Assembly (NCBI RefSeq): GCF_054482525.1
Contig: NZ_CM137006.1
Length of the DNA: 64,000 bases
Strand: one strand, 5' to 3'
Position numbers and translations under genes: made by a program
Part shown: positions 5,285 to 21,681 of the stretch, in pieces
Position numbering within the stretch: the first letter of the stretch is position 1
Layout of the letters: each line of letters begins with the position of its first letter
The notes under the pieces: generated by a model
Database searches by the model: none
Seen by the model: the letters and a program-made list of their open reading frames with translations, nothing else
What the model was told of the DNA's origin: nothing

Positions 5285-5872
5285 TCAGTTAACTGAATCG
5301 ATCCATTGCACACTGTCGGCGGAGAGCGTAAAGGGGGTGGGAGTGCAGATCGCCAGGCTTAAATTATCAAGCTGGCAATGGCTGACCGACAGTGATGACT
5401 GATAGGTGCTGTCTACGCTGACGATTTGCCAGGCGCTGCCGCCACGTTGTTTAACGATGGCTTCTTTGCGTGTCCAGATGCGCCAGAACATTTCCAGTTG
5501 CTGATCAGGATGCACGGCGTCCATCTCAGCGTGTTCCCCGAGGCTGAACACCGCGTTCGCCAGCCAGCGCCAGTTGGCGCGCGGGCGAATCACTTCGATA
5601 TCGCAGCCGACTTCGCCTTCATCGCTCAACAGCAGGGCGATATCGTCACCGCTATGGCTTAAGTTGAACCATAGCGGCGTTTCCGGCGCGAATGCAGGTT
5701 TGCCTTGTTCGCCATAGATGATCTCCGGTAGCGGGGAAAGCGTGTGCGAAAGCAATGCACGCCCCGCCAGCCAGCGTTCGCGTCGTGGACCTTGCGGTGC
5801 TTGATCGCGTAAAGCCGGTGGCAGTGGAGCTGCGCTTAAGGTCGAAACTTTCCCCAGAACTATCCGATACAT
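5285..5872 (-). CDS. acpT: 4'-phosphopantetheinyl transferase AcpT (holo-ACP synthase family)
   Basis: ORF track gives 5285..5992; the likely true start is the internal ATG at 5872-5870 (MYRIVLGKVSTLSAAPLPP..., 195 aa). That start lies 1 nt after the stop of the upstream ketosynthase gene. Confidence 0.8.
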   Translation of the reverse strand: MYRIVLGKVSTLSAAPLPPALRDQAPQGPRRERWLAGRALLSHTLSPLPEIIYGEQGKPAFAPETPLWFNLSHSGDDIALLLSDEGEVGCDIEVIRPRANWRWLANAVFSLGEHAEMDAVHPDQQLEMFWRIWTRKEAIVKQRGGSAWQIVSVDSTYQSSLSVSHCQLDNLSLAICTPTPFTLSADSVQWIDSVN

Positions 5873-5873
5873 A

Positions 5874-7103
5874 TCAGGGCCAACGTTTAATGATGATGGA
5901 TGTATTAATGCCACCAAAGGCAAAGTTGTTACTCTGCAAAAACTCACAATCAACTTTGCGGGCTTCATGCATGATGTAATCCAGCGCGCCACAATTCGGG
6001 TCTGGTTTATTCAGGTTTAGCGTAGGCGCAAACCAACCTTCGCGCATCATTTGCAGACTCATCCAGGCTTCGAGCGCGCCACAGGCACCAAGCGTATGAC
6101 CAAAATAACTTTTCAGCGAGGAGAGCGGCACATTATCACCGTAAATGGTTGCTGTCGCCAGACTTTCTGCCATATCACCGCGATCGGTCGCCGTACCATG
6201 CGCTGAAATATAGCCGATATCTTGTGCGCTTAACCCGGCGATTTTCAGCGATTGCTCCATACAATACTGCATGGTTTCGCGCTGCGGCTGGGTAATATGT
6301 GCCGCGTCGCAGTTAGTCGCAAAGCCGACGATTTCACCGTAAATGGTCGCGCCGCGCGCTTTGGCGTGCTCCAGTTCTTCGAGAATGAGCGTACCTGCGC
6401 CTTCACCAATCACCAGCCCGTCGCGGTTTTCATCGAACGGTGAAGGTGTGGTTTTCGGCGCATCATTGTGCTGGCTGGTGGCGAAAAGCGTATCAAATAC
6501 CGCTGCTTCTGAAGGGCATAACTCTTCGGCACCACCAGCAACCATCACCGTTTGATAACCGTGGCGAATGGCTTCCCACGCATAACCGATTGCCTGGCTG
6601 CCGGAGGTACAGGCGCTGGAGGTTGGAATCACCCGCCCGCGCAGGCCGAAAAAGAGGCCAGTATTAACGGCGGTGGTGTGTGGCATCATCTGCACATAGG
6701 TGGTGCCAGTGATGTTGTTCGTGTGCTTTTCCGTCAGCATGGTGGCGAACTCGCTCACCGGGCCGGTACTGCCGGTCGATGAACCGTACGCAATGCCCGT
6801 TTCGCCGCTGGTTAATATCGGATCGCCAATCAACCCTGCCTGCTCTAATGCCAGCTCTGTCGCACGGGTCGACATTTGCGACACGCGGCCCATCGCACGG
6901 ATACGCTTGCGGGTGTAATGCTCCGGCAGCGTAAAATCATCAACAGGCGCGCCAAGCAGGGTGTGCAGACCATCGTAGACCTGCCACTCCGGCATTTTGC
7001 GCACTGCATTCTCATACGCCAGCAGACGCGCGGAAACGTCCTGCCAGTTTTCACCAAAGGCAGTCACGCCGCCCATTCCTGTAATCACTACGCGACGTGT
7101 CAT
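5874..7103 (-). CDS. Beta-ketoacyl-ACP synthase (KS) with Cys-His-His active site; by gene order apeR-like
   Basis: 409 aa ORF with active-site Cys in SSACTSG and His motifs SAHGTATDRGD and FGHTLGACG; FabB/FabF fold. Confidence 0.85.
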   Translation of the reverse strand: MTRRVVITGMGGVTAFGENWQDVSARLLAYENAVRKMPEWQVYDGLHTLLGAPVDDFTLPEHYTRKRIRAMGRVSQMSTRATELALEQAGLIGDPILTSGETGIAYGSSTGSTGPVSEFATMLTEKHTNNITGTTYVQMMPHTTAVNTGLFFGLRGRVIPTSSACTSGSQAIGYAWEAIRHGYQTVMVAGGAEELCPSEAAVFDTLFATSQHNDAPKTTPSPFDENRDGLVIGEGAGTLILEELEHAKARGATIYGEIVGFATNCDAAHITQPQRETMQYCMEQSLKIAGLSAQDIGYISAHGTATDRGDMAESLATATIYGDNVPLSSLKSYFGHTLGACGALEAWMSLQMMREGWFAPTLNLNKPDPNCGALDYIMHEARKVDCEFLQSNNFAFGGINTSIIIKRWP

Positions 7104-7831
7104 AACATCCCTCCGTTGATGGAAATAACCTGGCGGGTGACGTAACCCGCAATATCAGACATTAAATAGCTGGCAAGCCCGGCAACTTCTTCCGCCTGGC
7201 CCATGCGTTTCATGGGGATCATCGACATTGCCTCTTTCAGAGCGCTCTCTTCCATTTCGATCATCCCGGTATCAATAAGCCCCGGCGCGATGCAGTTGAC
7301 GGTGATTTTGCGCTTCGCGAGTTCGATAGCCAGTGCTTTTGTTGCGCCGATAATTCCGGCTTTGGCAGCGCTGTAGTTCACCTGTCCGCGATTGCCCATC
7401 ACGCCGGAAACCGAGGACAGCGTGATGATTCGTCCACCCTGGCGTGCGCCGATCATCGGCATAATGCACGGCTGAATGACGTTGTAGAAACTGTCGAGGT
7501 TGGTGTGGATCACCGCATCCCAGTCGTCATCGCTTAAAGCCGGAAAAGCGGCATCGCGGGCGATCCCGGCGTTACTAACCACGCCGTACCAGGCACCGTG
7601 TTGCGCGATCTCGTGCTCCAGCACTTCCCGACACTGTTCGCGGTTTGCGACGTCGAAACTGAGCAAACGCCCGTTACCACCGTTAGCGACAATGGCATTC
7701 AGCGTTTCCTGAGCGCCTGCGGCGTCACGGTGATAGTGAACGCCAATGTTAAAACCGTCTGCCGCCAATTGGCAGGCGATGGCGCGACCAATGCCTTTGC
7801 TGGCACCAGTAACCAGAACTGAACGACTCAT
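7100..7831 (-). CDS. 3-oxoacyl-ACP reductase, FabG-like SDR (KR); apeQ-like
   Basis: 243 aa ORF with N-terminal TGASKGIGRAIA Rossmann motif and SDR catalytic region (YSAAKAG). Confidence 0.85.
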   Translation of the reverse strand: MSRSVLVTGASKGIGRAIACQLAADGFNIGVHYHRDAAGAQETLNAIVANGGNGRLLSFDVANREQCREVLEHEIAQHGAWYGVVSNAGIARDAAFPALSDDDWDAVIHTNLDSFYNVIQPCIMPMIGARQGGRIITLSSVSGVMGNRGQVNYSAAKAGIIGATKALAIELAKRKITVNCIAPGLIDTGMIEMEESALKEAMSMIPMKRMGQAEEVAGLASYLMSDIAGYVTRQVISINGGML

Positions 7832-8295
7832 CAGGACGCTCCTTGTTGAAACAGGGTGGTAAGTTCTTCCGCGGTCGGCTGGAAGGTGTTAATGCGGCCC
7901 GTTGCTTCGCCGTCGTTGATACTGCACTCAAAACTGCCGAAGCGATCGTCTTGCATCAGGAGTTTGACGGTAATGGTCAGCGTCTGGCCTGCGGGCAGAA
8001 TGCCAGCGGCGCAAAGCAATTCACGTGCGCCCAGTACCATCCCTAACTCAATACTGTTTTTGCCCTGCTGGTGGCGATGCCAGCCAGACCAGACGCCGAC
8101 GGTTTGCGCCATCAATTCAAGGGCAAACCAGCCAGGGAGATTGCCGTCCGGGTCGAGAAACGGTGCCAGTACGCCACTGGGCGAAACCGTCACGCGGCAC
8201 ACCGCGCTGTCATCGCTGACGCTCACCACGTCTTCCAGCAGTAACATGGGCGCGTCGTGGGGCAGATAAGCGCCGGGGGATAAATAGTGGCTCAC
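7831..8295 (-). CDS. Hotdog-fold dehydratase (DH); apeP-like
   Basis: 154 aa ORF, tightly coupled between the KR and KS genes; size and position fit a FabA/FabZ-like hotdog dehydratase. Confidence 0.7.
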   Translation of the reverse strand: MSHYLSPGAYLPHDAPMLLLEDVVSVSDDSAVCRVTVSPSGVLAPFLDPDGNLPGWFALELMAQTVGVWSGWHRHQQGKNSIELGMVLGARELLCAAGILPAGQTLTITVKLLMQDDRFGSFECSINDGEATGRINTFQPTAEELTTLFQQGAS

Positions 8296-9470
8296 GAAAC
8301 CCTCCCGAGCAGAATGCTGGCGTTATTGCCGCCAAAGGCGAAGGAATTGGACAGGATCACCGGACGTGCCAGCGGCTGTGGTTGTTCGATAATGCCGCAC
8401 GGTGGCAGCGTGGGATCGCGCGGCGACAGGCTGAAGTCCTGAGCGAGCAGCGGTAAATCACGCTGTAAAATCAACATGCTGATTGCCGCCTCGGTAATGC
8501 CCGCCGCGCCCAGCGTGTGTCCGGTCAAATGTTTGGTGGAACTGCAAGGTACGCGTTCGCCAAACAGGGCGTTAACCACCATCGATTCAATCTGGTCGTT
8601 GAGTTGTGTGGCGGTACCGTGCAGGTTGATATAGCCGACGTCATCTGGCGTAAGCTGCGCATCGGTCAGCGCCTGGTTAATGGCGCGGATCGCCCCTTCG
8701 CCCTGCGGATGCGGGGCCGAAATATGGTAAGCGTCGCTCGATTCACCAACGCCCAGTAACGCGATGGGCTGCGGTTCACGGGTTAATAACATCAGTCCCG
8801 CCCCTTCGCCAATGGTGATACCTGCGCGGTCACGACCAAACGGCTGACATAAGGTGGGCGAGAGCGATTCGAGGCTGTGAAAACCGTTAATCGGCATCCG
8901 GCTCAGAGTATCTGCGCCACCCACAATGGCGGCATCGACCAGCCCCGCTTCGATAAGCCTGCGCCCGCTGATCATCGCTCTGGCGCTGGAAGAGCAAGCG
9001 GTTGAAAGGGTATAAGCCGGGCCATCGAGCGCCAGCCAGTGGCTGAGAAAGCGCGACGGATCGCCAAGTTCCTGTTGCGCGTAGTGCCATGTGGTGCTCG
9101 GCTGTCCGTTGGTGCGCAGGTTAACGTGCGTGTCGCCCTCATGCAGGCCGGAGGTGCTGGTGCCAAGTACAATCGCGATGCGCTCGTGACCATATTTCGC
9201 GATAGCGTCATCAACCTGCGGCTGGATCTGCGCCAGCGCCGCCAGCAGGATCTGATTGTTGCGCGAGCGGTGCGCAGCGAATTTTTCGGGGATAAGCGGA
9301 AGCTCGCCATCCACGCCAGCCAGGACCGCCTGCGGATGCCCCTGCAACCAGCCTGCGCGCGGACGCATGCCGGGAGCGACACCGCGAGTCAGGTTGGCTG
9401 CGATCTCATCAAGGTTATTTCCCAGGGCGTTGATCATGCCGACGGCGGAAATATAAATCATATCAGTCAC
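8292..9470 (-). CDS. Beta-ketoacyl-ACP synthase (KS); apeO-like
   Basis: 392 aa ORF with TACSSSARAM (active Cys), LHGTATQLND and TGHTLGAAG His motifs. Confidence 0.85.
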   Translation of the reverse strand: MTDMIYISAVGMINALGNNLDEIAANLTRGVAPGMRPRAGWLQGHPQAVLAGVDGELPLIPEKFAAHRSRNNQILLAALAQIQPQVDDAIAKYGHERIAIVLGTSTSGLHEGDTHVNLRTNGQPSTTWHYAQQELGDPSRFLSHWLALDGPAYTLSTACSSSARAMISGRRLIEAGLVDAAIVGGADTLSRMPINGFHSLESLSPTLCQPFGRDRAGITIGEGAGLMLLTREPQPIALLGVGESSDAYHISAPHPQGEGAIRAINQALTDAQLTPDDVGYINLHGTATQLNDQIESMVVNALFGERVPCSSTKHLTGHTLGAAGITEAAISMLILQRDLPLLAQDFSLSPRDPTLPPCGIIEQPQPLARPVILSNSFAFGGNNASILLGRVS

Positions 9471-10047
9471 CTAAGTATTGAATGGTGATGTGGTATTTAA
9501 AGACATGCTGCTCAATGCTGATTGGCACGCGTTTGCCCTTGCGATTCAAATAGGTGATTTCCGTGACCAGCTTGCCGCTGGCGTTACGCAGCTCGCGTTT
9601 GTCACCGTTGTCGCGAAGTGTCCAGCCAGTGGGAAGTTGCGGCTGCCAGGCGCTAATCGGCCAGTGGCTGAGCATCACGTCAGCCAGTACCTGACTTGCG
9701 GGCGGTAACTGTGGGACGACGATCGATTGCTCGGCGCGTAGCCCTTGCGCATCGTAGGTCACCAGAAACAGGCGAATGCCGACCGACGACAGTCCGGCAA
9801 GGGTGATTTTCTGGTCGTCGGCGTTAAGCATCACTAGCAGCGACTGGGTTTTGCCGTTGAAGCTGCCGGTCAACAGTTGCTGGGAATTGACGGCGGGTGA
9901 AATCCCCGGCGCAGGCAGCGTGATGCGCGTGCCAGGTTGCAGCCACGCTTGCGGGCGGCCTTCCTGTTCTGGTTGCGAGTGGCTACAGCCGGTGAGGATA
10001 AGCGTAGCGGTCAGGGCGAACGCTCGCCAGAATGTGGGTTTGATCAT
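9463..10047 (-). CDS. Lipoprotein of unknown function, DUF3261-like; apeN-like
   Basis: 194 aa ORF with signal peptide and lipobox LTGC; overlaps neighbouring genes at both ends. Confidence 0.7.
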   Translation of the reverse strand: MIKPTFWRAFALTATLILTGCSHSQPEQEGRPQAWLQPGTRITLPAPGISPAVNSQQLLTGSFNGKTQSLLVMLNADDQKITLAGLSSVGIRLFLVTYDAQGLRAEQSIVVPQLPPASQVLADVMLSHWPISAWQPQLPTGWTLRDNGDKRELRNASGKLVTEITYLNRKGKRVPISIEQHVFKYHITIQYLGD

Positions 10048-12362
10048 TTTTTTGTTCTCTTTTTATCGGGCATGGCCAGCGGCGAAAGCAGGAAGGCGGT
10101 GAAAATACCGCTCACCAGCACAATGCCAAAACTGCTGATGGCCTGGGTGGCGCTGAATACCAGCATTCCCAGCGTCAGCAAGGTGGTGAGCATTGCCAGC
10201 GTGATCGCCAGTAGCGAAGTTAATGGTGTGCCGCGCGGATTACTGAAAAACAGCGTGTAGTTGATGCCGATGCCAAGCACCAGTACCAGCGCCAGCAGCG
10301 AAAAGAGATTCACCGCCTGCCCGCTCATCGCCAGCACCGCCAGACCGCAGCCCAGTGAAAGCACCGAAGGCACCAGGCTGATAAACCCTTTGCGCCAGCC
10401 GAGGCGGGCCACTGCGCCGCAGGCAATTACTGCCAGCGCCACCAGCAACAAGCCGGTTAACACATAACGGTAAAGTGCGAACAATTCATCAAAGGTGTTT
10501 TTGCGATCAACCCAGGCAATGCCACAAGGGTAATAGCTGGAGATTTCCTGTAGCGCCGCGCTATTTTTAACCCCTTCAACCGGCACCAGCACGCCGCTTG
10601 CGCCATTTTCCAGCGTCAGCCACAGCAGACGCCAGCCTTCACTGGCGGGGCTTGCCAGCCATTCATCAACCTTCACTGGCATGGCGTTAAGATCCGGGTT
10701 CACCGCCGTCAGCCCGGCATTTTGCAGTGCTTTTGTTACCGTCGGGGCAGCCGTTTTCAGCAGGTCTAAATCTTCCTCCTGCCGCGCCAGGGAGTTCAGC
10801 GGAATGGTGCGGTAGTTGCTGATAAGGCCGTCTTTTTTCGCTTTCTCCAGCGAGGTGGTAAATGTCTCCAGCCGTCCCAAGGTTTGCTGTGACGAATCGC
10901 CGTAAACCACAAACCATTTTTGATCGACGCTTTGTCCGGTCAGGGCGGTGATGGCTTTCTCCTGCGCCAGAATATGCTGCGGTAGCGCCTGTAACTGCGA
11001 GATATCGTCATCGACGCACAGCATTGACATCCCCGCCAGCGAAAACAGCGCCAGCGCGACGGGCAGACCCCGCGACAGTTTTTTATTACGCCGCCACGCT
11101 GCCAGCCAGCGCAGCATCAGCGCCATCGCTGGAACCGGACGCACCGGCAGGCCACGGCACAGCCACGGATGCCAGAACAGGACGGTCAGACAGGAGGCGC
11201 TCAACCCGACGGCGGCAAAAATCGCCATCTGGCGAATGCCGGGGAAGGGGGCGAGCATCATAATCAGATACGCCGCCACGGTGGTGAGCAGCGCCAGCAG
11301 CAGGGCATTGCGCACTTTCGCCAGGCTTTGCCACGGCGAAACGTCATTGCCGTGCACCATCCGCTCGGTGAGGTAATAGAGCGTGTAGTCAGCGGAAATG
11401 CCGATAACGCTCATGCTCATCACCAGCGTCATCAGGTGTAATTCGCCGAAAATCAACAAGGTGGCGACCGTTCCCGCCAGCGCGCCGATGCCGATGGAAA
11501 TCACACACATCAGCAACGGGCGCAAAGAGCGGAACACCGCCACAATCAGCAATATCACCCCCAGCAGCGTTGCCACGCCCAGGGTGGAGATATCCTGCTT
11601 CGCCTGTTGGCTGGCGTAATCGCTGTAAAACACCGTGCCGCGTGAGAGCAACTGAGCCTGCGGGTAACGCGTTTTCAGATCCTTTTCCAGCGTATTCAGG
11701 GTCGTGATGAGCTGGTGGGTTTGCTGCATATCAAACGACGATCCCGCCAGTTCGCCGTGCAGCAGATACCAGTAGTTGCCCTGGGGATCCTGCGTCACCA
11801 GCCAGCCGTCCATCAGCCGCAAACGCTGGCCGTTTTTCGCCATCGCCAGCTGCGAGCCACGCATTAACATCAGCGGATCGTTTTGCAGCTCCTTACCGCT
11901 TACCCCGGAGAACGCAGAATAAAGCTGGGAGAGGATCCACTGCGCCTGCGCTTCGCCGCCGTTTTGCAGGCGCGCGCGGGTGTCGGGGTCAATCAGACCG
12001 TTGCGATGCTGCCAGAAAAACGCTCCCCACGCCTGCTGGCTGGCGGCATCCATTGGCCCTTTAACGTCGCCGAGCGCAGCGGATTTTTGCAGCAGCGTCA
12101 GCCACTCCTGAGCGACCCTGGGATTAGCCTCTTTACCGGGGCTGACCAGCCACACCAGTTGGCGGTCCAGACGCTGCATAAAGCCGTCATTCAGCGCTGG
12201 GGGAATATCGCCCATCGCCTGTTTGGGTAACATAGCCAGTACGCTACTGTTCAGTCGTGATTGCGGCAACAGGATCAGCAACGCCGCCGCCATGACCAGG
12301 CAGACGATCCCCCATAACAGCGCCGGGCGTTTACTGGGCGGCAAAACGTTGGCGTTCGTCAT
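10044..12362 (-). CDS. MMPL/RND-superfamily membrane exporter; apeM-like
   Basis: 772 aa ORF with two blocks of transmembrane helices separated by soluble domains, typical of MMPL lipid exporters. Confidence 0.8.
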   Translation of the reverse strand: MTNANVLPPSKRPALLWGIVCLVMAAALLILLPQSRLNSSVLAMLPKQAMGDIPPALNDGFMQRLDRQLVWLVSPGKEANPRVAQEWLTLLQKSAALGDVKGPMDAASQQAWGAFFWQHRNGLIDPDTRARLQNGGEAQAQWILSQLYSAFSGVSGKELQNDPLMLMRGSQLAMAKNGQRLRLMDGWLVTQDPQGNYWYLLHGELAGSSFDMQQTHQLITTLNTLEKDLKTRYPQAQLLSRGTVFYSDYASQQAKQDISTLGVATLLGVILLIVAVFRSLRPLLMCVISIGIGALAGTVATLLIFGELHLMTLVMSMSVIGISADYTLYYLTERMVHGNDVSPWQSLAKVRNALLLALLTTVAAYLIMMLAPFPGIRQMAIFAAVGLSASCLTVLFWHPWLCRGLPVRPVPAMALMLRWLAAWRRNKKLSRGLPVALALFSLAGMSMLCVDDDISQLQALPQHILAQEKAITALTGQSVDQKWFVVYGDSSQQTLGRLETFTTSLEKAKKDGLISNYRTIPLNSLARQEEDLDLLKTAAPTVTKALQNAGLTAVNPDLNAMPVKVDEWLASPASEGWRLLWLTLENGASGVLVPVEGVKNSAALQEISSYYPCGIAWVDRKNTFDELFALYRYVLTGLLLVALAVIACGAVARLGWRKGFISLVPSVLSLGCGLAVLAMSGQAVNLFSLLALVLVLGIGINYTLFFSNPRGTPLTSLLAITLAMLTTLLTLGMLVFSATQAISSFGIVLVSGIFTAFLLSPLAMPDKKRTKK

Positions 12363-12936
12363 CGGTCAGTTGCGCTGGCGTCAGTTGATGTTGGGTAAGA
12401 GCGATATCGGTGCGATCGCCCTGTTTATCATTAAGCTGAATGCTCTCCAGATAGGTTTGCCCGGCGAGATCGATGGTGTTGAAAATTTTATCCAGCGGCG
12501 TGGTGGTCGGCGTCAGGCGCAGTGTCCAGCGGCCTTCGCCTTTGTCAGCAAATTCGACGCGGAAGTTTTGTTCCAGCACTTTGCGATCGGCCTGGAACAG
12601 CGCGCGCAGCAGGTGGTTAAACTGGAACATCTGCGGGTTATTTTCTGCCGTGATAATTTGCGGCGGCTGACCGTTGATCACCTGCACCATGCGTTTATCG
12701 TCCAGCAATAGTTGCATGGGGAACGGTGAGGTTTGATCCCACAACAGCCCCTGGTCGCGGGCGATCAACATCTGGCCCTGAGATCGTAGCGGCTGCGGCA
12801 GATCTTTAATCGTCCGGGTTTGATCGAAATGGGCGCGGATCACTGGCTGTTCGGTAAAGCGTTGCTGAAGATCGTCCAGGTTCAGGGCGCTCACAAACGG
12901 GCTAATCAGCAGCGCCAGCAGCGGTAAAAATTTCAT
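12331..12936 (-). CDS. LolA-like outer-membrane lipoprotein carrier protein; apeL-like
   Basis: 201 aa ORF with signal peptide (MKFLPLLALLISPFVSA); size and composition fit the LolA/LolB fold. Confidence 0.7.
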   Translation of the reverse strand: MKFLPLLALLISPFVSALNLDDLQQRFTEQPVIRAHFDQTRTIKDLPQPLRSQGQMLIARDQGLLWDQTSPFPMQLLLDDKRMVQVINGQPPQIITAENNPQMFQFNHLLRALFQADRKVLEQNFRVEFADKGEGRWTLRLTPTTTPLDKIFNTIDLAGQTYLESIQLNDKQGDRTDIALTQHQLTPAQLTDDERQRFAAQ

Positions 12937-13355
12937 GGTTTGACTCCCATGCGTTCAAACAGAATATCGGGGCTGACAAAGCACAGTTCGCGGCTTTGCT
13001 CGTCGACCGCGACCTGAATGGTGTATCCGGTGGTGGCGCGTTTTCCCGTTTCGGCATCGAAAATCTGATAGCCAATCCGCAGACGGTTTTCGAACTCTTC
13101 GATATGCGCACGCACGCGGATGCGTTGCTCAAAGGTGAGGGCGTGGCGATATTTCACCCTCGCATCGACCACTGGCCACAAATAACCGGACTCTTTCATC
13201 TGCCGATAGCCGTAATTGAACTGGTTGAGCAGCGCCTCGCGGGCCACTTCAAAGTAGCGAAAATAGTTACCGTGCCAGGCCACGCCCATCATATCGACGT
13301 CGTGAAAGGGAATGGTCAGCTCGACTTCAGCGGTAAATCGGGGATCGTTAAGCAC
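12933..13355 (-). CDS. Acyl-CoA/acyl-ACP thioesterase, 4HBT/YbgC hotdog family; apeK-like
   Basis: 140 aa ORF with the N-terminal ...ELTIPFHDVDMMGVAWHGNYFRYFE... motif typical of 4HBT-type thioesterases. Confidence 0.75.
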   Translation of the reverse strand: MLNDPRFTAEVELTIPFHDVDMMGVAWHGNYFRYFEVAREALLNQFNYGYRQMKESGYLWPVVDARVKYRHALTFEQRIRVRAHIEEFENRLRIGYQIFDAETGKRATTGYTIQVAVDEQSRELCFVSPDILFERMGVKP

Positions 13356-13358
13356 CCT

Positions 13359-15035
13359 TTACTCCTTGTCCTGGACTTCCGGCAGTTGCCAGAAATCGAA
13401 AAAATTAAACCAGTCGAGGGGGGACTGGAGCGCGTAATATTCCAGACGCGCGGCGTAATGATCGATAGCGTTTTGCAGCGCCTGCTGGCGTTCGCCACGC
13501 GGCAACAGCAGCGGGTCGGCAAAGGTTTCGCAGTGAATATGCAGCTTGCCGTGCTGGCGCAGCGCGAAAATCAGATTCACCGGGCAGCGCAAAATAGACG
13601 CAAGAATAAACGGCCCCTGCGGGAAGGGCGCAGGCTGGCCCATAAACGGACTCCAGCAGACTCGCCAGTCGCCGCCGCGTTGCGGGTTGACGGCGATGCG
13701 GTCACCGACAATCGCCACCCATTCGCCGTTATCCAGCTTCTCTTTGAGCAGGATGGCGGTTTCTGGGCCGATATCCGTCACCGGGAGCAGGTTGATGCCT
13801 GCCTGCGGGGCCATCTCCTGCATTATCTGTTTAAAGCGTTGGGCGTTTTCGCTAAACACCAGCGCGTTAATGGTTTTGTAGCCCTGAATTTTTGCCAGCG
13901 CCCGGCACACTTCCACATCGCCAAGATGCGAGGCCAGCAGCAATTTGCCGCGCGGATCGCTGACGTTAAGTGCCGCTTCTGCGCCTGGTGCAAACAGCAC
14001 ATCACGCCCGAGTTGCAGCTCGCCGCGCCAGCTGGCGATTTTGTCGAGCATGGCGTTGCCGAAACGTAGAAAGTGCTGATAGCTGTTGATTTTTGCTGCC
14101 AGTGGTTGTTGTTGGCGCACACGGGCGAGCCAGGCTTGCGACGCTTTACGCGCACGAGCAGCGGTGAGCCAGTAGACGCCCACCACCGGGTAAAGCAGCG
14201 CGGTAAACGCAGTTCTTCCCAGCAGACGCCAGACCAGCAGCATCAGGCGCATTCCCCATAATCCTTTCACTTCGCTCTGCCGCGCCCAGTGGCTGGAAGA
14301 GCTGCGCATCAGCAGTGAAGGAATACGCGGCAACATGCCGAAAAACAGACGTGTGTGCATGAGCGAGATGCGGACGTTATCTTTCAGGGCATCAAAATGC
14401 GAAAGCCCGTCCAGTGGATAGGTGACGCGGGTCGGCACGAAATAGCTGGTGTTTCCCTGCCAGTAGAGGCGCACCATCACTTCAGTGTCGAAATCCATCC
14501 GCTTGCCGATGGTGGCGTATTTTGCCAGTTGCAGCGTTGGCGCAACCGGATAAACGCGAAAGCCGCACATGCTGTCTTTCAGTTGCAGGGAGAGCGTTTC
14601 GATCCATACCCAGACGTGGGTGACCCAGCGCCCGTACAGCCGTGAGCGGGGGATGGAGTCATCGTAAATCGGCTGGCCGGAGATCAGCGCCGCAGGCTGC
14701 TGTTCAGCGAGTGCCAGCAGTTTAGGGATGTCTTCAATCGCGTGCTGACCGTCAGCATCCACCTGTACCGCATGGCTGAAGCCCGCGTCTGCCGCCGCCT
14801 GTAAGCCGCGCATTACCGCCGCGCCTTTGCCTGCGTTTTCTGCCAGGCGAATTAAGGTCACGCCAGGCTGTTCGGCAACCAGATTATCCAGTTGCTGTTG
14901 CGTGGCGGCATCGCTGCCGTCATCCACCACAATACAGGGCAGATTAAATGGCTTAAGACGCGCCAGCACGCCCGGCATCATCGCACCGTGGTTGTAGCAG
15001 GGGATCAACACACAGGGAGAAAAGTTTACCGACAT
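13359..15035 (-). CDS. Two-domain protein: family 2 glycosyltransferase (N-terminal) fused to a lipid-A-type acyltransferase domain (C-terminal); apeJ-like
   Basis: 558 aa ORF; N-terminus CVLIPCYNHG...VVDDGSDA...VDADGQH is the GT2 signature (DxD-type); C-terminal half resembles LpxL/HtrB-like acyltransferases. Confidence 0.7.
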   Translation of the reverse strand: MSVNFSPCVLIPCYNHGAMMPGVLARLKPFNLPCIVVDDGSDAATQQQLDNLVAEQPGVTLIRLAENAGKGAAVMRGLQAAADAGFSHAVQVDADGQHAIEDIPKLLALAEQQPAALISGQPIYDDSIPRSRLYGRWVTHVWVWIETLSLQLKDSMCGFRVYPVAPTLQLAKYATIGKRMDFDTEVMVRLYWQGNTSYFVPTRVTYPLDGLSHFDALKDNVRISLMHTRLFFGMLPRIPSLLMRSSSSHWARQSEVKGLWGMRLMLLVWRLLGRTAFTALLYPVVGVYWLTAARARKASQAWLARVRQQQPLAAKINSYQHFLRFGNAMLDKIASWRGELQLGRDVLFAPGAEAALNVSDPRGKLLLASHLGDVEVCRALAKIQGYKTINALVFSENAQRFKQIMQEMAPQAGINLLPVTDIGPETAILLKEKLDNGEWVAIVGDRIAVNPQRGGDWRVCWSPFMGQPAPFPQGPFILASILRCPVNLIFALRQHGKLHIHCETFADPLLLPRGERQQALQNAIDHYAARLEYYALQSPLDWFNFFDFWQLPEVQDKE

Positions 15036-15409
15036 AGGCGGATCTTCCCGCTACTGGCGGTGTGGCGGGCGTCACCGTCGTGACGCTGATAGCTAAAGCT
15101 CAGAATCTGGCGTTCTTCCTGCCAGTTAAGCGTGAGCGTGACGCGGTTTTCCGGCAGCAACGGGGACTGGAATTTGATGTTCTGAATAGAGTGAAAACGC
15201 CAGCCAGGCGCGAGCAGGGCAAGCGCGTAGCTCATCGCCCAGTCGATTTGTGCAACTCCTGGAAGTAACGGCTGCACGGCAAAATGACCGCGAAACCAGA
15301 ACAGATCCGCCCTGAGATGCAGAACAATTTCAAGGTGATTCGCTTGTGCCTGATGGCGCTCGATTTCATGGGGCTTCATGAAATAACTCCTGTAATTGCG
15401 CATAGACAC
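15026..15409 (-). CDS. Hotdog-fold dehydratase, FabA/FabZ-like (DH); apeI-like
   Basis: 127 aa ORF (true start possibly the internal Met at about 15379); small hotdog protein overlapping both neighbours. Confidence 0.6.
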   Translation of the reverse strand: MSMRNYRSYFMKPHEIERHQAQANHLEIVLHLRADLFWFRGHFAVQPLLPGVAQIDWAMSYALALLAPGWRFHSIQNIKFQSPLLPENRVTLTLNWQEERQILSFSYQRHDGDARHTASSGKIRLCR

Positions 15410-16766
15410 GCTTGTTCATACTGTTTACTGGCATTTCATCAATAACGCGCCAGTAACGCGGAATAGCAACTGGCTCCAGGGTCGGGCGCAGTAATCGCCG
15501 CCAGGTCATTTCCTGGCTATGCCCGCCGCCGTTCTGCCATTGCAGATGAGCTTCGTCATCCAGCACCAGCAAAACGCCGATGCTCTGACGCCCGCCGCGC
15601 GTAACGGGAACTGCCGCCGCCTCGCGAATGCCGTCCAGCGCCAGCAGACGTTGTTCTACTTCCTGGAGTGAAATACGTTTTTCTTCAATCTTAACGATGC
15701 GCCCACGACGCCCCATCAGATGGAACTGACCGTCCTGGCTAAACTGCAAGAGATCGTCGAGCAACAGGCCGTTATCTTCCGCTATCAGCGGTGAAAAGAG
15801 GCGAAATGCTTCACCTTCGACCTGGAAGTGCATACCTGGAAAGGGCCGCCAGCGGCGTTGCTCTTGTTCGCGGTAACGCCAGGCAATGACGCCGGTTTCC
15901 GTGCTGCCGAAGATTTCATCAGGCCAGACGCGCAGCCAGCTCTCGGTATATTGTACGTCCTGCCACGGCAGCTCACCGCCAGCAGAGAGAAGCACCTGAA
16001 CAGGCGGCGGGGATAGCTGAGCATCCAGACGCTTCAAAAATGCCGGGCTGCTGATGAAGATATAGCGATGCTGGTGACTCAATGCGGCAAACTGTTCGAC
16101 ATACCAGAGCATGGCGGCGTGCAGCGGTAATCCCAGCGCCATTGGCAGGAAAACGCGAAAAGTCAGGCCGTACAAATGCTGCGGCAAAACGGAACCGACG
16201 ACACGACATCCGGCAAGACGTGCGCCTAATCGTTCAGCCAGCAGTTCTGCTTCACGGTCCAGCAAATGAACAGGCTTAATTACCCGCTTTGGCTGCCCCG
16301 TAGAACCGGAGGTAAACAGCTCGATATAAGCGTCTGGCGCTATAGCGGCAAAGGTGAATGATTGTGTCGCGACTTGTGGGGAACTTGCTACCAACAGCAA
16401 TGAACCTTGCCAGTTAAGTTCGCTGTCGCTAAGTACACCATCGAACAGTTCACGTTGCTCATTAAGCTGGATGACACGGTTATGCCCCGGAAGCACCGGC
16501 GTTTTTCCGGCGTGTAGCGTGGCGAGCAGGGCAACGATAAATAGATAGCTGTTCTCAAAGCACAGCGCCCAGCGTTCACCCGGCTGTTGCTGCAAGCGGC
16601 AGATAAGTTGCGCGACATCGTGACGCAAATCGCCCAGTGTCCACGAGCTTTCGTCCAGCCACGCAATGGGCGTGTCATCAGGGCGTGGCGCAGTCAGCCA
16701 GCGTGCAAGCGGTAAGGTCTGCTTCATGAGCGATCTCTTTTTATCACCTGACGGCGCACCAGCCAT
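15366..16766 (-). CDS. AMP-dependent ligase (acyl-ACP/CoA synthetase-like adenylating enzyme); apeH-like
   Basis: 466 aa ORF with AMP-binding core motif TSGSTGQPKRV; the start may be the internal Met (MKQTLPL...) at about 16727. Confidence 0.8.
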   Translation of the reverse strand: MAGAPSGDKKRSLMKQTLPLARWLTAPRPDDTPIAWLDESSWTLGDLRHDVAQLICRLQQQPGERWALCFENSYLFIVALLATLHAGKTPVLPGHNRVIQLNEQRELFDGVLSDSELNWQGSLLLVASSPQVATQSFTFAAIAPDAYIELFTSGSTGQPKRVIKPVHLLDREAELLAERLGARLAGCRVVGSVLPQHLYGLTFRVFLPMALGLPLHAAMLWYVEQFAALSHQHRYIFISSPAFLKRLDAQLSPPPVQVLLSAGGELPWQDVQYTESWLRVWPDEIFGSTETGVIAWRYREQEQRRWRPFPGMHFQVEGEAFRLFSPLIAEDNGLLLDDLLQFSQDGQFHLMGRRGRIVKIEEKRISLQEVEQRLLALDGIREAAAVPVTRGGRQSIGVLLVLDDEAHLQWQNGGGHSQEMTWRRLLRPTLEPVAIPRYWRVIDEMPVNSMNKRVYAQLQELFHEAP

Positions 16767-17305
16767 TCACCTGCCATTAACGTTCCCATCAACAAATAAG
16801 CAATCATGCCGTTCCAGGCGGTCCATAACGACATATCGCCATAAAGCGCGGTAAAGAGGGCAATTCCGCCGTTAATGATGAAAAAGCCGCACCAGATTTG
16901 CGTGACACGGCGGGTATAGCGCACGCCCTTTTCCGGGAGGTCTGGCTCCTGCAAACGTGCCAGCCGCTCAACTATCGGCATTGTCGACCACAGCGAACCG
17001 CCAAAAACCGCCAGCATGATCGCGTTAACCACTACCGGGTAAAACAGCAGTAGCTGGTGCGTTTTCAACAGAAAGCTGGCGACACACAATGCGATGCCCA
17101 CGACAGCGACGATTTGTGTGACGGCTTGTAGCGGCCCCGCCCGGCGACGGGTCTGGCGCAGGCGCAACAAAAGCAGCAACGCTATTAGCGGCAACAACCA
17201 GTGCAGGCCGTTATGCGCCAGGCCAAACCAAATCACAAACGGCCAGGCGAGCAGCAATAATCCAGTCAGCAGCTTAATCATCGGTAGCGAGCGAATGCCC
17301 GACAT
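16724..17305 (-). CDS. Small integral membrane protein of unknown function; apeG-like
   Basis: 193 aa ORF with several hydrophobic helices; coding-dense position inside the cluster. Confidence 0.6.
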   Translation of the reverse strand: MSGIRSLPMIKLLTGLLLLAWPFVIWFGLAHNGLHWLLPLIALLLLLRLRQTRRRAGPLQAVTQIVAVVGIALCVASFLLKTHQLLLFYPVVVNAIMLAVFGGSLWSTMPIVERLARLQEPDLPEKGVRYTRRVTQIWCGFFIINGGIALFTALYGDMSLWTAWNGMIAYLLMGTLMAGEWLVRRQVIKRDRS

Positions 17306-17309
17306 CAGA

Positions 17310-17561
17310 TCAGGCTTCTTGTAGCAGGCGTTCTACAGCCTCTACGACATCCTGAACTGTGCGCACTGCTTTAAACTCTTCCGGCTTGATTTTCTTACCG
17401 GTTTTCTTTTGCAGGTGCACAATCATGTCAACGGCGTCGATGCTGTCCAGTTCCAGATCTTCGTACAGGCGCGCTTCAGGTTTGATGTCCTGCGGATCGA
17501 TTTCAAACAGCTTAACCAGCAGGGCTGAGACTTCCTGATAGACGGTTTGTTGTTCTGTCAT
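17310..17561 (-). CDS. Acyl carrier protein; apeF-like
   Basis: 83 aa acidic ORF with the phosphopantetheine attachment motif LELDSIDAVDMI. Confidence 0.85.
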   Translation of the reverse strand: MTEQQTVYQEVSALLVKLFEIDPQDIKPEARLYEDLELDSIDAVDMIVHLQKKTGKKIKPEEFKAVRTVQDVVEAVERLLQEA

Positions 17562-17572
17562 GATGGCTTTCC

Positions 17573-17830
17573 TCAGGCACGTTGCGCAGCAATGAAAGAG
17601 GCCAGAGTGGCGACGGAGAAAAAGTGCTGACGCATCTCTTCACTTTCCGCAGAAAGTACAACGCCATATTGATTTTTCACTGCCAGCCCCAGTTCCAGGG
17701 CATCGATGGAATCCAGTCCTAAACCGTCGCCGAACAGCGGCGCATCGGTCTCGATATCATCAGGAGTCAACTCGTCCAGATTGAGGGTACTGATGATGAG
17801 GTTTTTAATTTCCAGATAAAGCGCTTGCAT
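17573..17830 (-). CDS. Acyl carrier protein; apeE-like
   Basis: 85 aa ORF with LGLDSIDALELG attachment motif; tandem with the second ACP gene. Confidence 0.85.
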   Translation of the reverse strand: MQALYLEIKNLIISTLNLDELTPDDIETDAPLFGDGLGLDSIDALELGLAVKNQYGVVLSAESEEMRQHFFSVATLASFIAAQRA

Positions 17831-18644
17831 TATTTATTCCTGAGAGAGGTAAACAACCTTGTTGTAATTGAAGCAAAAGATGCCGGTTTAACTGCCTTGC
17901 TGCCAGCGCCGGTTCTTGTGAAGTTGCATCGTAAAATTTATTGATTTCAACCCGACCATGGACTTCAACCGTAAAAAACGGCCGGTCAGGTGGAACGTCA
18001 TACCATTTACTTTGTTTATCCAGCAGATGCTCGCTACAGCCGATCGTCACGATGCGTAAATCGCTGGCACAGCGCACGGCAATATTCGCCGCCCCGCGCT
18101 GCAGCGTCATTTTTTCACCGGGCTTCGTTCGCGTGCCTTCGGGGAAAATCAGGATAGTGTCACCCTGTGCCAGTCGCTGTTGGCAGCGGGGTAACAGGGT
18201 TTCAGCTTCGCTGTTGATTAAATAATCTGCCGCCCGCACGACGCCGCCAAGAAAAGGATTTTTTAACAGCGCGCTTTTCACCAGGCAGTCAGTTTCTGGC
18301 ATGACTGACGCCAGCAGCACGTAATCGATCAGCGTGGGATGATTGGCTACGACGAGGCAACCGCGTTCCTGACGTAAAATTTCAGCGCCATCAATACGAT
18401 AATCCAGCACGCCAAGCCCTTTCGCGACAGTTAAAAACAGGCGAAAACTGGCGGCAATGCTGCGACGCGCCAAACGACGGCGGCGGGAAGTATCCCACAC
18501 CAAAACTAACAATATGTTAAACCACACGACAGAAAGCAGCAGGCCGCCGAGACCAAACAGGGCAAAACATAACCCGGTCATGACCAGTCGCCAGGTCCAC
18601 TCCAGACGTGACATCAGCTTACTCATCTGCGGCTCCAGCGCCAT
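17805..18644 (-). CDS. Lysophospholipid (PlsC-type) acyltransferase; apeD-like
   Basis: 279 aa ORF with N-terminal transmembrane segment and H(X)4D-type motif NHPTLID; likely start at the Met giving an ATGA overlap with the upstream stop near 18626. Confidence 0.75.
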   Translation of the reverse strand: MALEPQMSKLMSRLEWTWRLVMTGLCFALFGLGGLLLSVVWFNILLVLVWDTSRRRRLARRSIAASFRLFLTVAKGLGVLDYRIDGAEILRQERGCLVVANHPTLIDYVLLASVMPETDCLVKSALLKNPFLGGVVRAADYLINSEAETLLPRCQQRLAQGDTILIFPEGTRTKPGEKMTLQRGAANIAVRCASDLRIVTIGCSEHLLDKQSKWYDVPPDRPFFTVEVHGRVEINKFYDATSQEPALAARQLNRHLLLQLQQGCLPLSGINNASALSGN

Positions 18645-19345
18645 TGCACGCGCTCGCCAGGCAGTGAAAATGCGTCTGCATTTTGTAAATAGTGCTGTAA
18701 AAACAACATGCTTTGCGGCAGTGATGTTTCATTGCCCGCAATGGCTGACTGCGTTTCACATTGCCAGTCATCGCCAGCTTCAATCACCAGCGCGACGGCG
18801 TACGGCCAGGTCGGCATTTCTGATGGCAGTTGTGGGTGATAAAACTCAGGCAGAAAGCCATCAAAATCGACCATCAGCACGCGCTGGTATCCCGCTTGTA
18901 ACAGGCTAAGCACTTCACACAAACCTTGCTGGAAAGTGTCGCGACCAGCAGAAAGCGATGACGAAACGATCGGCTGTTTGGCCGCAATGGTCAGGTTACC
19001 CACGGAAGAGTTGTGTACGGAGAGCGCGAAGTCGGTCGGAGAAAGCGCCTGTTCAGTTGCCAGTGCATGAACAATGCGGTAATTGCGCTCCAGTTCGCCA
19101 TGACGACTGGTATACAAAACGGCGTCTGGCTGATGGCGGCGTAGCATTGCCAGACCGCATTCAACAGCCAGTTTGCTGCCTGAACTAAGGCGGCGGGCGG
19201 TCATCATTGGCAGTTCACTTAATTTTGCCAACGGCGCGGCAGGGTCAATCGCCCACGGCTGGCGCGACCATGCTTGCCATTGCTGCGCTTCGCTAAGTCC
19301 AGGCGCCAGTGCCTGCCAGTCGGTAATATTTAATGTAAATTTCAT
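18623..19345 (-). CDS. Beta-ketoacyl synthase N-terminal-domain protein lacking the catalytic Cys (chain-length-factor-like); apeC-like
   Basis: ORF track gives 18623..19369 (248 aa); probable start MKFTLNITDW at about 19345. About half the size of a full KS with no active-site Cys motif recognisable. Confidence 0.6.
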   Translation of the reverse strand: MKFTLNITDWQALAPGLSEAQQWQAWSRQPWAIDPAAPLAKLSELPMMTARRLSSGSKLAVECGLAMLRRHQPDAVLYTSRHGELERNYRIVHALATEQALSPTDFALSVHNSSVGNLTIAAKQPIVSSSLSAGRDTFQQGLCEVLSLLQAGYQRVLMVDFDGFLPEFYHPQLPSEMPTWPYAVALVIEAGDDWQCETQSAIAGNETSLPQSMLFLQHYLQNADAFSLPGERVQWRWSRR

Positions 19346-19385
19346 CAACGCGCGCCCGCGGTAAACCAAAATTATTAAGTGACGA

Positions 19386-20453: not shown

Positions 20454-20512
20454 AACCTGTTAAGAGGGAATTAAATTATTATCGGACCGCAGCGGCCCGA
20501 CTTTAGGAAGAA

Positions 20513-20902
20513 TTATAAATCTGCGCCCGCTGACAAATTCAGTTGAATATCTTTGTCGAGATTGCGGACCCAGCGATTGTAGTTTTTATGAATTTGTCCG
20601 CCTGACGCTTGTAGGTTCTGGCTATTTTCATAATTGATATCGTAGCTGGATGCCGTGTAGTTAATGCGAATTTCGGCTGAATGATCGCGTGACTGTTGAC
20701 GTGCTTTAATTACGCCTTGTCCGGCTTCGGACATAATCCATTTGCGTTCAACGCCAGCTTTCAGAATCGCTTTTTTCACTTGTTCCTGGGTATGACCAGC
20801 GCTGACGGTTGAGTGAACCTGATCAATTGGCGCAGTACGCGCGCAACCCGCTAAAGCACCCACAACAGCAATAGCCGCAAACCATTTCATGTAATGTCTC
20901 AT
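20513..20902 (-). CDS. Small lipoprotein of unknown function; first gene of the cluster
   Basis: 129 aa ORF with signal peptide and lipobox LAGC; its start codon lies inside the IS1 target duplication. True start may be the second Met (MKWFAA...). Confidence 0.6.
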   Translation of the reverse strand: MRHYMKWFAAIAVVGALAGCARTAPIDQVHSTVSAGHTQEQVKKAILKAGVERKWIMSEAGQGVIKARQQSRDHSAEIRINYTASSYDINYENSQNLQASGGQIHKNYNRWVRNLDKDIQLNLSAGADL

Positions 20903-20904
20903 TA
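20896..20904. repeat. IS1 target-site duplication, left copy (gtctcatta)
   Basis: 9 bp direct repeat identical to 21673-21681, directly flanking the IS1 ends. Confidence 0.85.
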
Positions 20905-20919
20905 GGTAATGACTCCAAC

Positions 20920-21423: not shown

Positions 21424-21617
21424 CCAACGCCATTCATGGCCATATCAATGATTTTCTGGTGCGTACCGGGTTGAGAAGCGGTGTAAGTGAACTGCAGTTG
21501 CCATGTTTTACGGCAGTGAGAGCAGAGATAGCGCTGATGTCCGGCGGTGCTTTTGCCGTTACGCACCACTCCGTCAGTAGCTGAACAGGAGGGACAGCTG
21601 ATAGAAACAGAAGCCAC
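21342..21617 (-). CDS. insA: IS1 protein InsA
   Basis: 91 aa [46 protein letters not shown]... matching IS1 InsA. Confidence 0.9.
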
Positions 21618-21672
21618 TGGAGCACCTCAAAAACACCATCATACACTAAATCAGTAAGTTGGCAGCATCACC

Positions 21673-21681
21673 GTCTCATTA
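21673..21681. repeat. IS1 target-site duplication, right copy (gtctcatta)
   Basis: Identical to 20896-20904. Confidence 0.85.

Follow-up and report, generated by a model that had tools for sequence, protein, structure and literature searches.

A probable lipid-anchoring and export module, apeJ–apeN, in an Escherichia coli-type aryl polyene gene cluster

Introduction

[quoted passage not shown] In a 64,000-nucleotide stretch of contig NZ_CM137006.1 (hereafter the window), an original prediction had proposed that an MMPL exporter, a LolA-like carrier, a lipoprotein and a glycosyltransferase/acyltransferase fusion, interleaved with biosynthetic genes, attach a product to a glycolipid-like anchor and move it to the outer membrane. 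The locus raises the question of what these genes are and which anchoring and transport route they would serve.

Results

Identity of the locus

Five intact, closely packed ORFs occupy positions 9463–15035 of the window on the minus strand (ORF coordinates checked; Table 1), and are joined, from apeN to apeJ, by overlaps of 4, 32 and 4 nt and a gap of 3 nt. The four ORFs already named (772, 201, 194 and 558 aa) were recovered where predicted on the minus strand, as was their interleaving with biosynthetic genes, with apeO–R on one side and apeI/H on the other. The earlier inventory had overlooked the thioesterase gene apeK, and its lipoprotein, ApeN, had not been identified as a LolB-like member of DUF3261.

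Table 1 Features of the APE locus, in window positions.
Feature	Positions	Strand	Description	Basis or role
apeN	9463..10047	-	DUF3261 lipoprotein, LolB-like fold, 194 aa	proposed outer-membrane acceptor
apeM	10044..12362	-	MMPL/RND-type inner-membrane transporter, 772 aa	PF03176
apeL	12331..12936	-	secreted LolA-like carrier, 201 aa	PF03548, PF19574
apeK	12933..13355	-	hotdog-fold YbgC/FadM 4HBT-type thioesterase, 140 aa	TIGR00051
apeJ	13359-15035	-	GT2/acyltransferase fusion, 558 aa	PF00535 and fold comparison
apeJ, N-terminal half	14316..15035	-	residues 1-240, GT2 (GT-A) glycosyltransferase domain	PF00535
apeJ, C-terminal half	13359..14303	-	residues 245-558 and stop codon, predicted LpxL/PatA-type (LPLAT) acyltransferase	fold
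APE cluster, apeR...apeA	5874..20890	-	18 genes, apeJ-apeN in the middle	CFT073 collinearity, PCN033 annotation
apeO-R	5874-9461	-	KS/DH/KR/KS genes	biosynthetic
apeI/H	15026-16727	-	DH and adenylating-enzyme genes	biosynthetic
apeG	16724-17305	-		proposed anchoring/export role
apeD	17805-18626	-	LPLAT	proposed anchoring/export role
apeA	20513-20890	-	lipoprotein	proposed anchoring/export role
acpT	5285..5872	-	phosphopantetheinyl transferase adjoining the cluster	PCN033 and Sakai annotation

All 18 ape genes are intact and collinear with c1186–c1204 of E. coli CFT073 (64–100% protein identity), and the two clusters form one alignment of 14,954 columns at 91.5% DNA identity. The E. coli-type APE gene set is complete, with KS/CLF, two ACPs, KR, two DHs, an adenylating enzyme and an LPLAT, together with the GT2-acyltransferase, thioesterase, LolA-like protein, MMPL transporter and DUF3261 protein. 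ApeN, ApeM, ApeL, ApeK and ApeJ share 96.9–100% protein identity with c1190–c1194 (97.9% for ApeM and c1191, 98.5% for ApeL and c1192, 100% for ApeK and c1193), whereas ApeI, ApeH, ApeG and ApeA are just 64–82% identical to their CFT073 counterparts. The window also differs in carrying an IS1 element ~15 bp upstream of apeA, which makes APE expression in this strain uncertain. In O157:H7, the homologues of ApeE/F are activated by AcpT (De Lay and Cronan 2006, cited in PMC8253772).

Gene order, sizes, domains and functional model all match those of the CFT073 and Xenorhabdus doucetiae ape clusters, and apeJ–apeN is a previously described system, for which the published model already covers both anchoring and export. 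The analysis establishes what the apeJ–apeN genes are, the domains, folds and targeting signals of their products, and that their linkage is conserved. We consider it probable that apeJ-apeK-apeL-apeM-apeN forms the section of the E. coli APE cluster devoted to lipid anchoring and export, and would act by the transport mechanism set out in the Discussion.

Distribution and conserved gene order

DNA matching apeJ–apeN was found in 825 of 5426 complete E. coli genomes (826 matching records). The 5.6-kb stretch is at least 95% identical in all but one of these records, so the arrangement is not due to chance. In the window the cluster is flanked by acpT and yhhT, the same site as in O157:H7 Sakai, whereas the CFT073 cluster occupies a different chromosomal site, in an island adjoining cdiBA-type genes. 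The possibility of two diverged paralogous APE clusters in E. coli was rejected, since a sensitive DNA search returned one type at two alternative sites.

Across 80 related loci from alpha-, beta- and gammaproteobacteria, the order J-K-L-M-N was invariable. The GT2 sequence lay directly upstream of the acyltransferase in 78 loci, fused to it in 53 and as a separate adjacent gene in 25, and apeK was present in 77, apeM in 75 and apeL in 66. Detection of apeN by tblastn (E ≤ 1e-5) succeeded in 52 loci, and the remainder may reflect divergence, loci ending at a contig edge or true absence. The contigs of two distant DUF3261 proteins were too short for useful gene context.

ApeJ combines a glycosyltransferase with a predicted acyltransferase

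The N-terminal half of ApeJ matches the GT2 family PF00535 over residues 8–130 (Pfam, E = 9.2e-20) and carries the motifs D38-D39-G-S and D93-A-D95 (DDGS and DXD, for nucleotide-sugar and metal binding). Among NCBIfam models it matched the polyprenyl-phospho-GalNAc synthase PpgS best, at a score far below the model cut-off (1.5e-14, 54 bits against 370), in agreement with the GalNAc-1-phosphate link in the Xenorhabdus lipid. In that end product of X. doucetiae, GalNAc carries the polyene in ester linkage and is joined via phosphate to diacylglycerol, and a ΔapeJ mutant accumulates an unglycosylated acylated glycerol-phosphate intermediate (bioRxiv 10.1101/2020.12.19.423268). In E. coli CFT073, ΔapeD and ΔapeJ mutants yield late intermediates and a mutant lacking apeK accumulates early APE carboxylic acids (PMC8253772). 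ApeK of the window matches TIGR00051 (1.3e-16) and a MenI-like model (2.7e-21) in NCBIfam.

Direct scans of the C-terminal half returned no match of its own in Pfam and no genuine match among PDB sequences, and its assignment comes through homologues and fold. The lipid A acyltransferase family PF03279 was matched by 15 of 38 homologues of the domain (41–81% identical to the E. coli domain; best E = 5.7e-14), and a profile built from the homologues matched LpxM (5kn7) at E = 0.001 among PDB sequences, below stronger matches to designed ankyrin repeat proteins (DARPins). The DARPins, top in both PDB searches, were rejected as a chance similarity of one short stretch, LLASHLGDVEVCRAL, to the ankyrin consensus, boosted by its repetition. 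An AlphaFold model of the domain (pLDDT 84.4) was compared with the PDB using Foldseek, which gave 12 PatA chains and 2 LpxM entries (3.6e-11 to 3.6e-9, probability 1.00) and nothing else significant, the next match being at 8e-3. H370 and E375 do not vary among 38 sequences and form an HX4E motif, H370-x4-E375, and G372 is likewise invariant. These comparisons indirectly confirm the C-terminal half as a putative PatA/LpxM-type LPLAT acyltransferase domain, such that the domain analysis bears out both halves of the predicted fusion, the first by PF00535 and the second by homologues and fold.

PatA and LpxM both acylate glycolipid sugars. PatA, the phosphatidylinositol mannoside 6-O-acyltransferase, and LpxM, the lipid A secondary acyltransferase, share the fold and the catalytic-type HX4E motif with the ApeJ domain, and each of the three is taken to act on the sugar of a membrane glycolipid. 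The ApeJ domain is only 14–18% identical to them in sequence and, unlike either, is fused to GT2 in 53 of 78 loci. Its presumed donor would be an ACP-bound aryl polyene, whereas PatA and LpxM use fatty acyl-CoA or acyl-ACP.

The likeness to LpxM bears on an alternative in which ApeJ decorates lipid A or LPS in an LpxM-like manner and the product rides on LPS via Lpt, leaving ApeL, ApeM and ApeN some other role. LpxM is one of the two significant folds for the domain, homologues match a lipid A family, PF03279, and Johnston et al. suggested lipid A as a possible anchor (PMC8253772). The fold match to PatA is nevertheless stronger than that to LpxM (3.6e-11 against 1e-9; TM-score normalised by target length 0.71 against 0.55), the backbone of the solved orthologous product is glycerophosphate-GalNAc rather than lipid A, and carriage by Lpt would make a dedicated MMPL/LolA/LolB set unnecessary. 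We consider lipid A decoration very improbable, and favor a glycophospholipid as the substrate.

ApeM resembles lipid-transporting members of the RND superfamily

ApeM matches the MMPL family PF03176 (Pfam, E = 2.7e-7) and, below the NCBIfam thresholds, the HAE3 (1.4e-13), HpnN (1.6e-11) and BstA models. HpnN is the closest solved relative (PDB sequences 5khn, 2.3e-6; 6wu0, 3.1e-5), a remote one with E about 1e-6 and one half of the protein aligned, and at 877–883 residues the solved HpnN chains are longer than ApeM. A simple Kyte-Doolittle scan, as distinct from a topology predictor, indicated 12 hydrophobic segments in a 1+5/1+5 pattern, with peaks at residues 14–32, 258–397 (five), 432–450 and 634–759 (five) and two large loops of ~225 and ~180 residues. 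D325-Y326, which falls in the predicted fourth membrane segment, was the same in all 73 homologues, and we take this pair to resemble the Asp-Tyr proton-relay pairs of MmpL3. The position corresponding to D325 in the second half, 701, holds D in 47 of the 73 and N in the other 26, with N701 in E. coli and other enterobacteria, while Y702 is retained in 71. ApeM would thus share with MmpL3 and HpnN, RND transporters of lipids toward the outer envelope, the MMPL domain, the 12 segments with two periplasmic loops and the fourth-segment Asp-Tyr pair, but differs from them in the replacement of the second-half Asp by Asn in enterobacteria and in being paired with LolA- and LolB-like partners.

The RND superfamily includes drug exporters, and ApeM also weakly matches CmeB and multidrug RND models, which would suit a pump for efflux of, or self-protection against, the free aryl polyene acid or by-products, with ApeL and ApeN as accessories unrelated to outer-membrane insertion. 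Retention of pigment and of UV/H2O2 protection in a Lysobacter enzymogenes mutant without its LolA-like gene (PMC3691225) is compatible with such a role. The closest solved relatives, however, are lipid transporters of the HpnN type and not tripartite pumps, and the annotation of the 18 cluster genes includes no periplasmic adaptor and no outer-membrane channel. Furthermore, the CFT073 cluster in a cloning strain gives a cell-bound yellow pigment that does not diffuse into the medium, and deletion of apeM in CFT073 renders APE metabolites undetectable rather than causing them to accumulate (PMC8253772). Efflux is accordingly a very unlikely function for ApeM, and export of a finished lipid remains our preferred reading.

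ApeL and ApeN resemble LolA and LolB

ApeL matches LolA (PF03548, 2e-11) and LolA_3 (PF19574, 3e-11) in Pfam, as well as the PDB entry 8t5j, a 'LolA family protein' (E = 1e-22); a literature search found no describing paper for 8T5J, 9COZ or 9CWL. It begins with a cleavable signal sequence, MKFLPLLALLISPFVSA|LN, with the cleavage site VSA|L. ApeL falls below the cut-off of the LolA equivalog model TIGR00547 (60.4 bits against 112) and matches the NCBIfam model 'flexirubin biosynthesis/transport protein LolA2' (55 bits, 6.5e-15). Judged by these models, ApeL is a predicted LolA-like paralogue and not the housekeeping LolA.

DUF3261 (PF11659, E = 3.5e-39) is the sole Pfam assignment of ApeN, which matched no NCBIfam family, and the protein carries a lipobox, L18-T-G-C21, with an outer-membrane-type sorting signal. 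Its link to LolB was seen by fold alone: structure comparison shows a LolB-like fold, whereas a profile of 82 homologues found no LolB among PDB sequences. A word-index search had given close relatives only (at least 81% identity), and the diverse alignment was taken from a representative library.

LolA and LolB folds normally handle lipoproteins, and the cluster encodes one, ApeA, with the lipobox LAGC, such that ApeL and ApeN could sort ApeA to the outer membrane with the polyene being, or attached to, its lipid anchor, an alternative raised by Johnston et al. (PMC8253772). Against this, what was purified from Xenorhabdus is a glycophospholipid in free form (bioRxiv 10.1101/2020.12.19.423268), pigmentation of a ΔapeA mutant is near wild-type (PMC8253772), and an apeA homologue was detected in 24 of the 80 loci compared with 66–75 for apeL and apeM. 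Between the E. coli alleles, no other protein of the cluster diverges as much as ApeA (64% identity). We regard ApeA as a highly improbable anchor, and return to a lipid cargo for ApeL and ApeN.

Discussion

Under the mechanism that we favor, ApeD would supply a phosphatidic-acid-type lipid, and on the cytoplasmic side of the inner membrane the GT2 domain of ApeJ would attach a sugar to its phosphate (in Xenorhabdus, the product carries GalNAc). The PatA/LpxM-like domain would then esterify the ACP-bound aryl polyene to that sugar, with the thioesterase ApeK possibly assisting release or editing. Using the proton gradient, the RND/MMPL pump ApeM would extract the finished aryl polyene lipid from the inner membrane and pass it to the secreted LolA-fold carrier ApeL, which would deliver it to the LolB-fold lipoprotein ApeN as outer-membrane acceptor, and the pigment in the outer membrane would protect the cell from oxidative stress. 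The order and direction of transfer from ApeM through ApeL to ApeN are inferred, as are its energy source and the precise E. coli anchor. Counting against this mechanism are the unimpaired pigmentation and UV/H2O2 protection of the L. enzymogenes mutant without its LolA-like gene (PMC3691225), the Asn at position 701 of enterobacterial ApeM, and the detection of apeN in only 52 of the 80 loci.

A secreted LolA-fold protein and a LolB-fold lipoprotein with an outer-membrane signal are likewise the components of the LolA-LolB pathway. There, however, the inner-membrane partner is the LolCDE ABC transporter, where the APE system has an RND/MMPL pump, and the cargo is a lipoprotein, whereas the APE cargo is thought to be a glycophospholipid. 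Whether ApeM, ApeL and ApeN form a self-contained, proton-gradient-driven route across the periplasm for a non-protein glycophospholipid, with an RND pump replacing LolCDE, is in our assessment evenly balanced.

Related aryl polyene pigments, xanthomonadin and flexirubin, are specified by clusters in Xanthomonas, Lysobacter and Flavobacterium that likewise contain genes for exporters, for a LolA-like protein and for a GT2 resembling dolichyl-phosphate-mannose synthase (PMC3691225), but which differ in gene order and in head-group tailoring. The halogenase and ammonia-lyase genes of this tailoring were seen in Shewanella-type loci.

The glycolipid-type anchor and outer-membrane delivery put forward in the original prediction correspond to the published model (Johnston 2021; Grammbitter 2020), and the domain, fold and synteny analyses are consistent with it. 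For CFT073, ApeM, ApeL and ApeN were already proposed as the export route, and the only E. coli ΔapeL and ΔapeN mutants made were insertions that may be polar (PMC8253772). The export genes of the window, being nearly identical to the studied CFT073 genes, add nothing new to this picture. The APE literature examined reports no membrane-fractionation or in vitro transfer test for ApeL, ApeM or ApeN, and as outer-membrane delivery is still a model, the apeJ–apeN module is a sensible subject for biochemical work on lipid transport. If the model is true, ApeM-ApeL-ApeN would constitute a distinct pathway by which E. coli delivers lipid to its outer membrane.

Organization and distribution of the export and anchoring genes

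The original prediction placed an MMPL exporter, a LolA-like carrier, a lipoprotein and a glycosyltransferase/acyltransferase fusion in this region, and all four open reading frames were found at the predicted place, while a fifth gene, encoding the thioesterase ApeK, had been overlooked. Each of the 18 cluster genes was set against its counterpart in CFT073 c1186-c1204, the aryl polyene (APE) cluster defined by Johnston et al. 2021 (PMC8253772, Table 1), and all were collinear. In the annotation of E. coli PCN033, the five genes lie within an 18-gene fatty-acid/polyketide-like cluster and are labeled, from apeN to apeJ, DUF3261 protein, MMPL family transporter, LolA family protein, acyl-CoA thioesterase and GT2 protein. 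Their successive junctions were a 4-nt overlap, a 32-nt overlap, a 4-nt overlap and a 3-nt gap, a packing typical of co-translated operon genes.

Features of the export and anchoring genes and of compared regions (window coordinates unless L043 is given; identities are of proteins versus CFT073)
Feature	Position	Strand	Description	Identity
apeN	9463-10047	-	194 aa, DUF3261; intact ORF	96.9%
apeM	10044-12362	-	772 aa, MMPL; intact ORF	97.9%
apeL	12331-12936	-	201 aa, LolA-like; intact ORF	98.5%
apeK	12933-13355	-	140 aa, thioesterase; intact ORF	100%
apeJ	13359-15035	-	558 aa, GT2/acyltransferase; intact ORF	97.7%
apeI	within 15026-17305			71.8%
apeH	within 15026-17305		starter-activating adenylating enzyme	66.4%
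apeG	within 15026-17305			82.4%
apeA	20513-20890			64.3%
IS1 copy	20905-21672		in the yhhT-ape operon interval; ~15 bp upstream of the start codon of apeA	
Histidine/tyrosine ammonia-lyase-type gene	L043 (10975-12534 / 16166-17443)		tailoring; between apeJ and apeK	
Flavin-dependent halogenase-like gene	L043 (10975-12534 / 16166-17443)		tailoring; between apeM and apeN	

The 5.6-kb apeN-apeJ DNA was 100% identical to the PCN033 chromosome and to several further strains, and was present in 825 of 5426 complete E. coli genomes; among the 826 records matching it, identity was at least 95% in all except one. No further, diverged copy of the APE cluster turned up in E. coli in a sensitive DNA search. 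One APE cluster occupies two alternative chromosomal sites across the species: between acpT and yhhT in the window (5285-20890 with acpT), PCN033 and O157:H7 Sakai, where ECs_4324-4341 share the arrangement and site of the window, or, in CFT073-like strains (CFT073 and AST216 compared), in an integrase-bearing island far from acpT, with decayed sugar-utilization genes and cdiBA-type genes as neighbors. Most cluster proteins were 92-100% identical to those of CFT073, with ApeI, ApeH, ApeG and ApeA as outliers. The window alleles of these four are common to O157:H7 Sakai (94-99%), so that E. coli has two allele families, one acpT-linked and one of the CFT073-type island, which probably arose by recombination. 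The IS1 copy upstream of apeA is flanked by a target duplication, GTCTCATTA(G), at ~20896-20905 and 21673-21682; it is absent from PCN033 and most other strains, with IS1 occupying this site in only 4 of 5426 complete genomes, and the insertion may separate the ape operon from its native promoter.

Conservation of the module was assessed in 80 gamma-, beta- and alphaproteobacterial loci returned by a genome scan using the acyltransferase alignment. In 78 loci the GT2 part immediately preceded the acyltransferase, as a single ORF in 53 and as adjacent separate ORFs in 25; that both fused and split versions occur argues that the two activities would serve the same pathway step. apeK was found in 77 loci, apeM in 75, apeL in 66 and apeN in 52, in the order J-K-L-M-N without exception and flanked by the same biosynthetic genes. 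Spacing within the module was wider in many non-enterobacterial APE loci (many of L029-L086); in that of Shewanella gelidimarina (L043) the extra space is filled by two tailoring genes.

Domain architecture of ApeJ

Domain analysis bore out the predicted fusion, with GT2 at the N-terminus and an acyltransferase at the C-terminus, the latter recognized through homologues, motif and predicted fold. Residues 8-130 matched Pfam GT2 (9.2e-20) and carry the motifs DDGS (38-41) and DAD (93-95), and the best NCBIfam match, with a score far under the cut-off, was polyprenyl-phosphate GalNAc transferase. Enzymes of this type couple sugar to lipid phosphate. This is the same linkage as the GalNAc-1-phosphate-glycerol of the Xenorhabdus aryl polyene lipid (bioRxiv 10.1101/2020.12.19.423268).

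The C-terminal half (residues 245-558) had no Pfam or PDB sequence match of its own, and the acyltransferase label therefore needed further support. Homologues 41-50% identical to it, many of them stand-alone proteins of about 310-330 aa, carry PF03279 (LpxL/LpxP family). In the alignment, 15 of 38 homologues matched PF03279, and H370, G372 and E375 of the HX4E motif were invariant. The AlphaFold model (pLDDT 84.4, pTM 0.85) matched only PatA (3.6e-11) and LpxM (1e-9) among solved structures, the next match being at 8e-3, and this predicted fold confirmed the PatA-like assignment. Both PatA and LpxM transfer acyl groups to the sugar of membrane glycolipids. Such activity fits the aryl polyene esterification to GalNAc proposed previously (bioRxiv 10.1101/2020.12.19.423268).

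Predicted export route

ApeM matched Pfam MMPL (E = 2.7e-7), HpnN among PDB sequences and, below threshold, the HAE3, HpnN and BstA lipid-transporter models of NCBIfam; a hydropathy scan resolved twelve segments, arranged 1+5/1+5 as in RND proteins, and two large loops. In 73 aligned homologues from related loci, the predicted fourth segment always carried D325-Y326. Residue 701, the second-half counterpart of Asp325, was Asp in 47 of them and Asn in the other 26, E. coli among these, and Tyr followed it directly in 71. In MmpL3 the proton relay consists of Asp-Tyr pairs at the equivalent positions, and by analogy the likeliest reading of ApeM is a proton-driven pump. ApeG has been suggested to power export by hydrolysis (PMC8253772; bioRxiv 10.1101/2020.12.19.423268), an energy source not needed by an RND protein such as ApeM. 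Plain efflux by ApeM is less likely than lipid export, as the pigment is cell-bound (PMC8253772) and the PCN033 annotation assigns no adaptor or outer-membrane channel to the cluster.

ApeL matched Pfam LolA and LolA_3 (both about 2e-11) and fell below the cut-off of the NCBIfam housekeeping LolA model. Its N-terminus is a typical signal peptide, MKFLPLLALLISPFVSA|LN, from which a periplasmic location should be expected; the sequence lends no support to the cytoplasmic location given in the preprint of Grammbitter et al. 2020 (bioRxiv 10.1101/2020.12.19.423268). The 'LolA family' structure 8t5j, a structural-genomics deposit, matched ApeL at E = 1e-22, compared to 0.0066 for the best true LolA, and may be an ApeL orthologue. 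ApeL was also compared with 9coz and 9cwl, and a literature search found no paper describing any of the three. ApeN matched DUF3261 (Pfam, 3.5e-39), and the predicted fold confirmed its LolB-like assignment. Its lipobox, LTGC, places Ser at +2 after Cys21, which in E. coli lipoproteins predicts sorting to the outer membrane. ApeK is a YbgC/FadM-type hotdog thioesterase (NCBIfam).

Relation to the published model

Johnston et al. gave c1190-c1194 exactly these functions, proposing that ApeD and ApeJ fix the pigment to a lipid anchor and that the pigment then crosses the inner membrane via ApeM and reaches the outer membrane via ApeL and ApeN (PMC8253772). In their mutants, ΔapeD and ΔapeJ yielded late intermediates, ΔapeK early acids and ΔapeM no detectable APE metabolites, and clean ΔapeL and ΔapeN mutants were not obtained (PMC8253772). 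The Xenorhabdus product, solved by Grammbitter et al. 2020, comprises an aryl polyene, GalNAc, phosphate, glycerol and two further acyl chains, and an unglycosylated intermediate builds up in ΔapeJ (bioRxiv 10.1101/2020.12.19.423268). Because that structure is a free lipid, lipid A is less likely to be the pigment anchor, and ApeA is less likely to be the cargo of the Lol-like proteins ApeL and ApeN, apeA being also weakly conserved (24 of 80 loci). Deletion of the LolA-like gene in Lysobacter left both pigment and protection intact (PMC3691225), and our literature search found no published report of fractionation or transfer experiments for ApeL, ApeM or ApeN.

The glycolipid-type anchor and outer-membrane delivery of the original prediction match the work of Johnston et al. 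(PMC8253772) and the Xenorhabdus preprint, and therefore amount to the accepted model, a supported reading that is already published rather than new. What our analysis adds to this model is small: the LolB-like assignment of ApeN and the PatA-like assignment of ApeJ are confirmed at the level of fold, ApeL was found to begin with a signal peptide, an Asp-Tyr pair is conserved in ApeM, and fused and split versions of apeJ have been counted.
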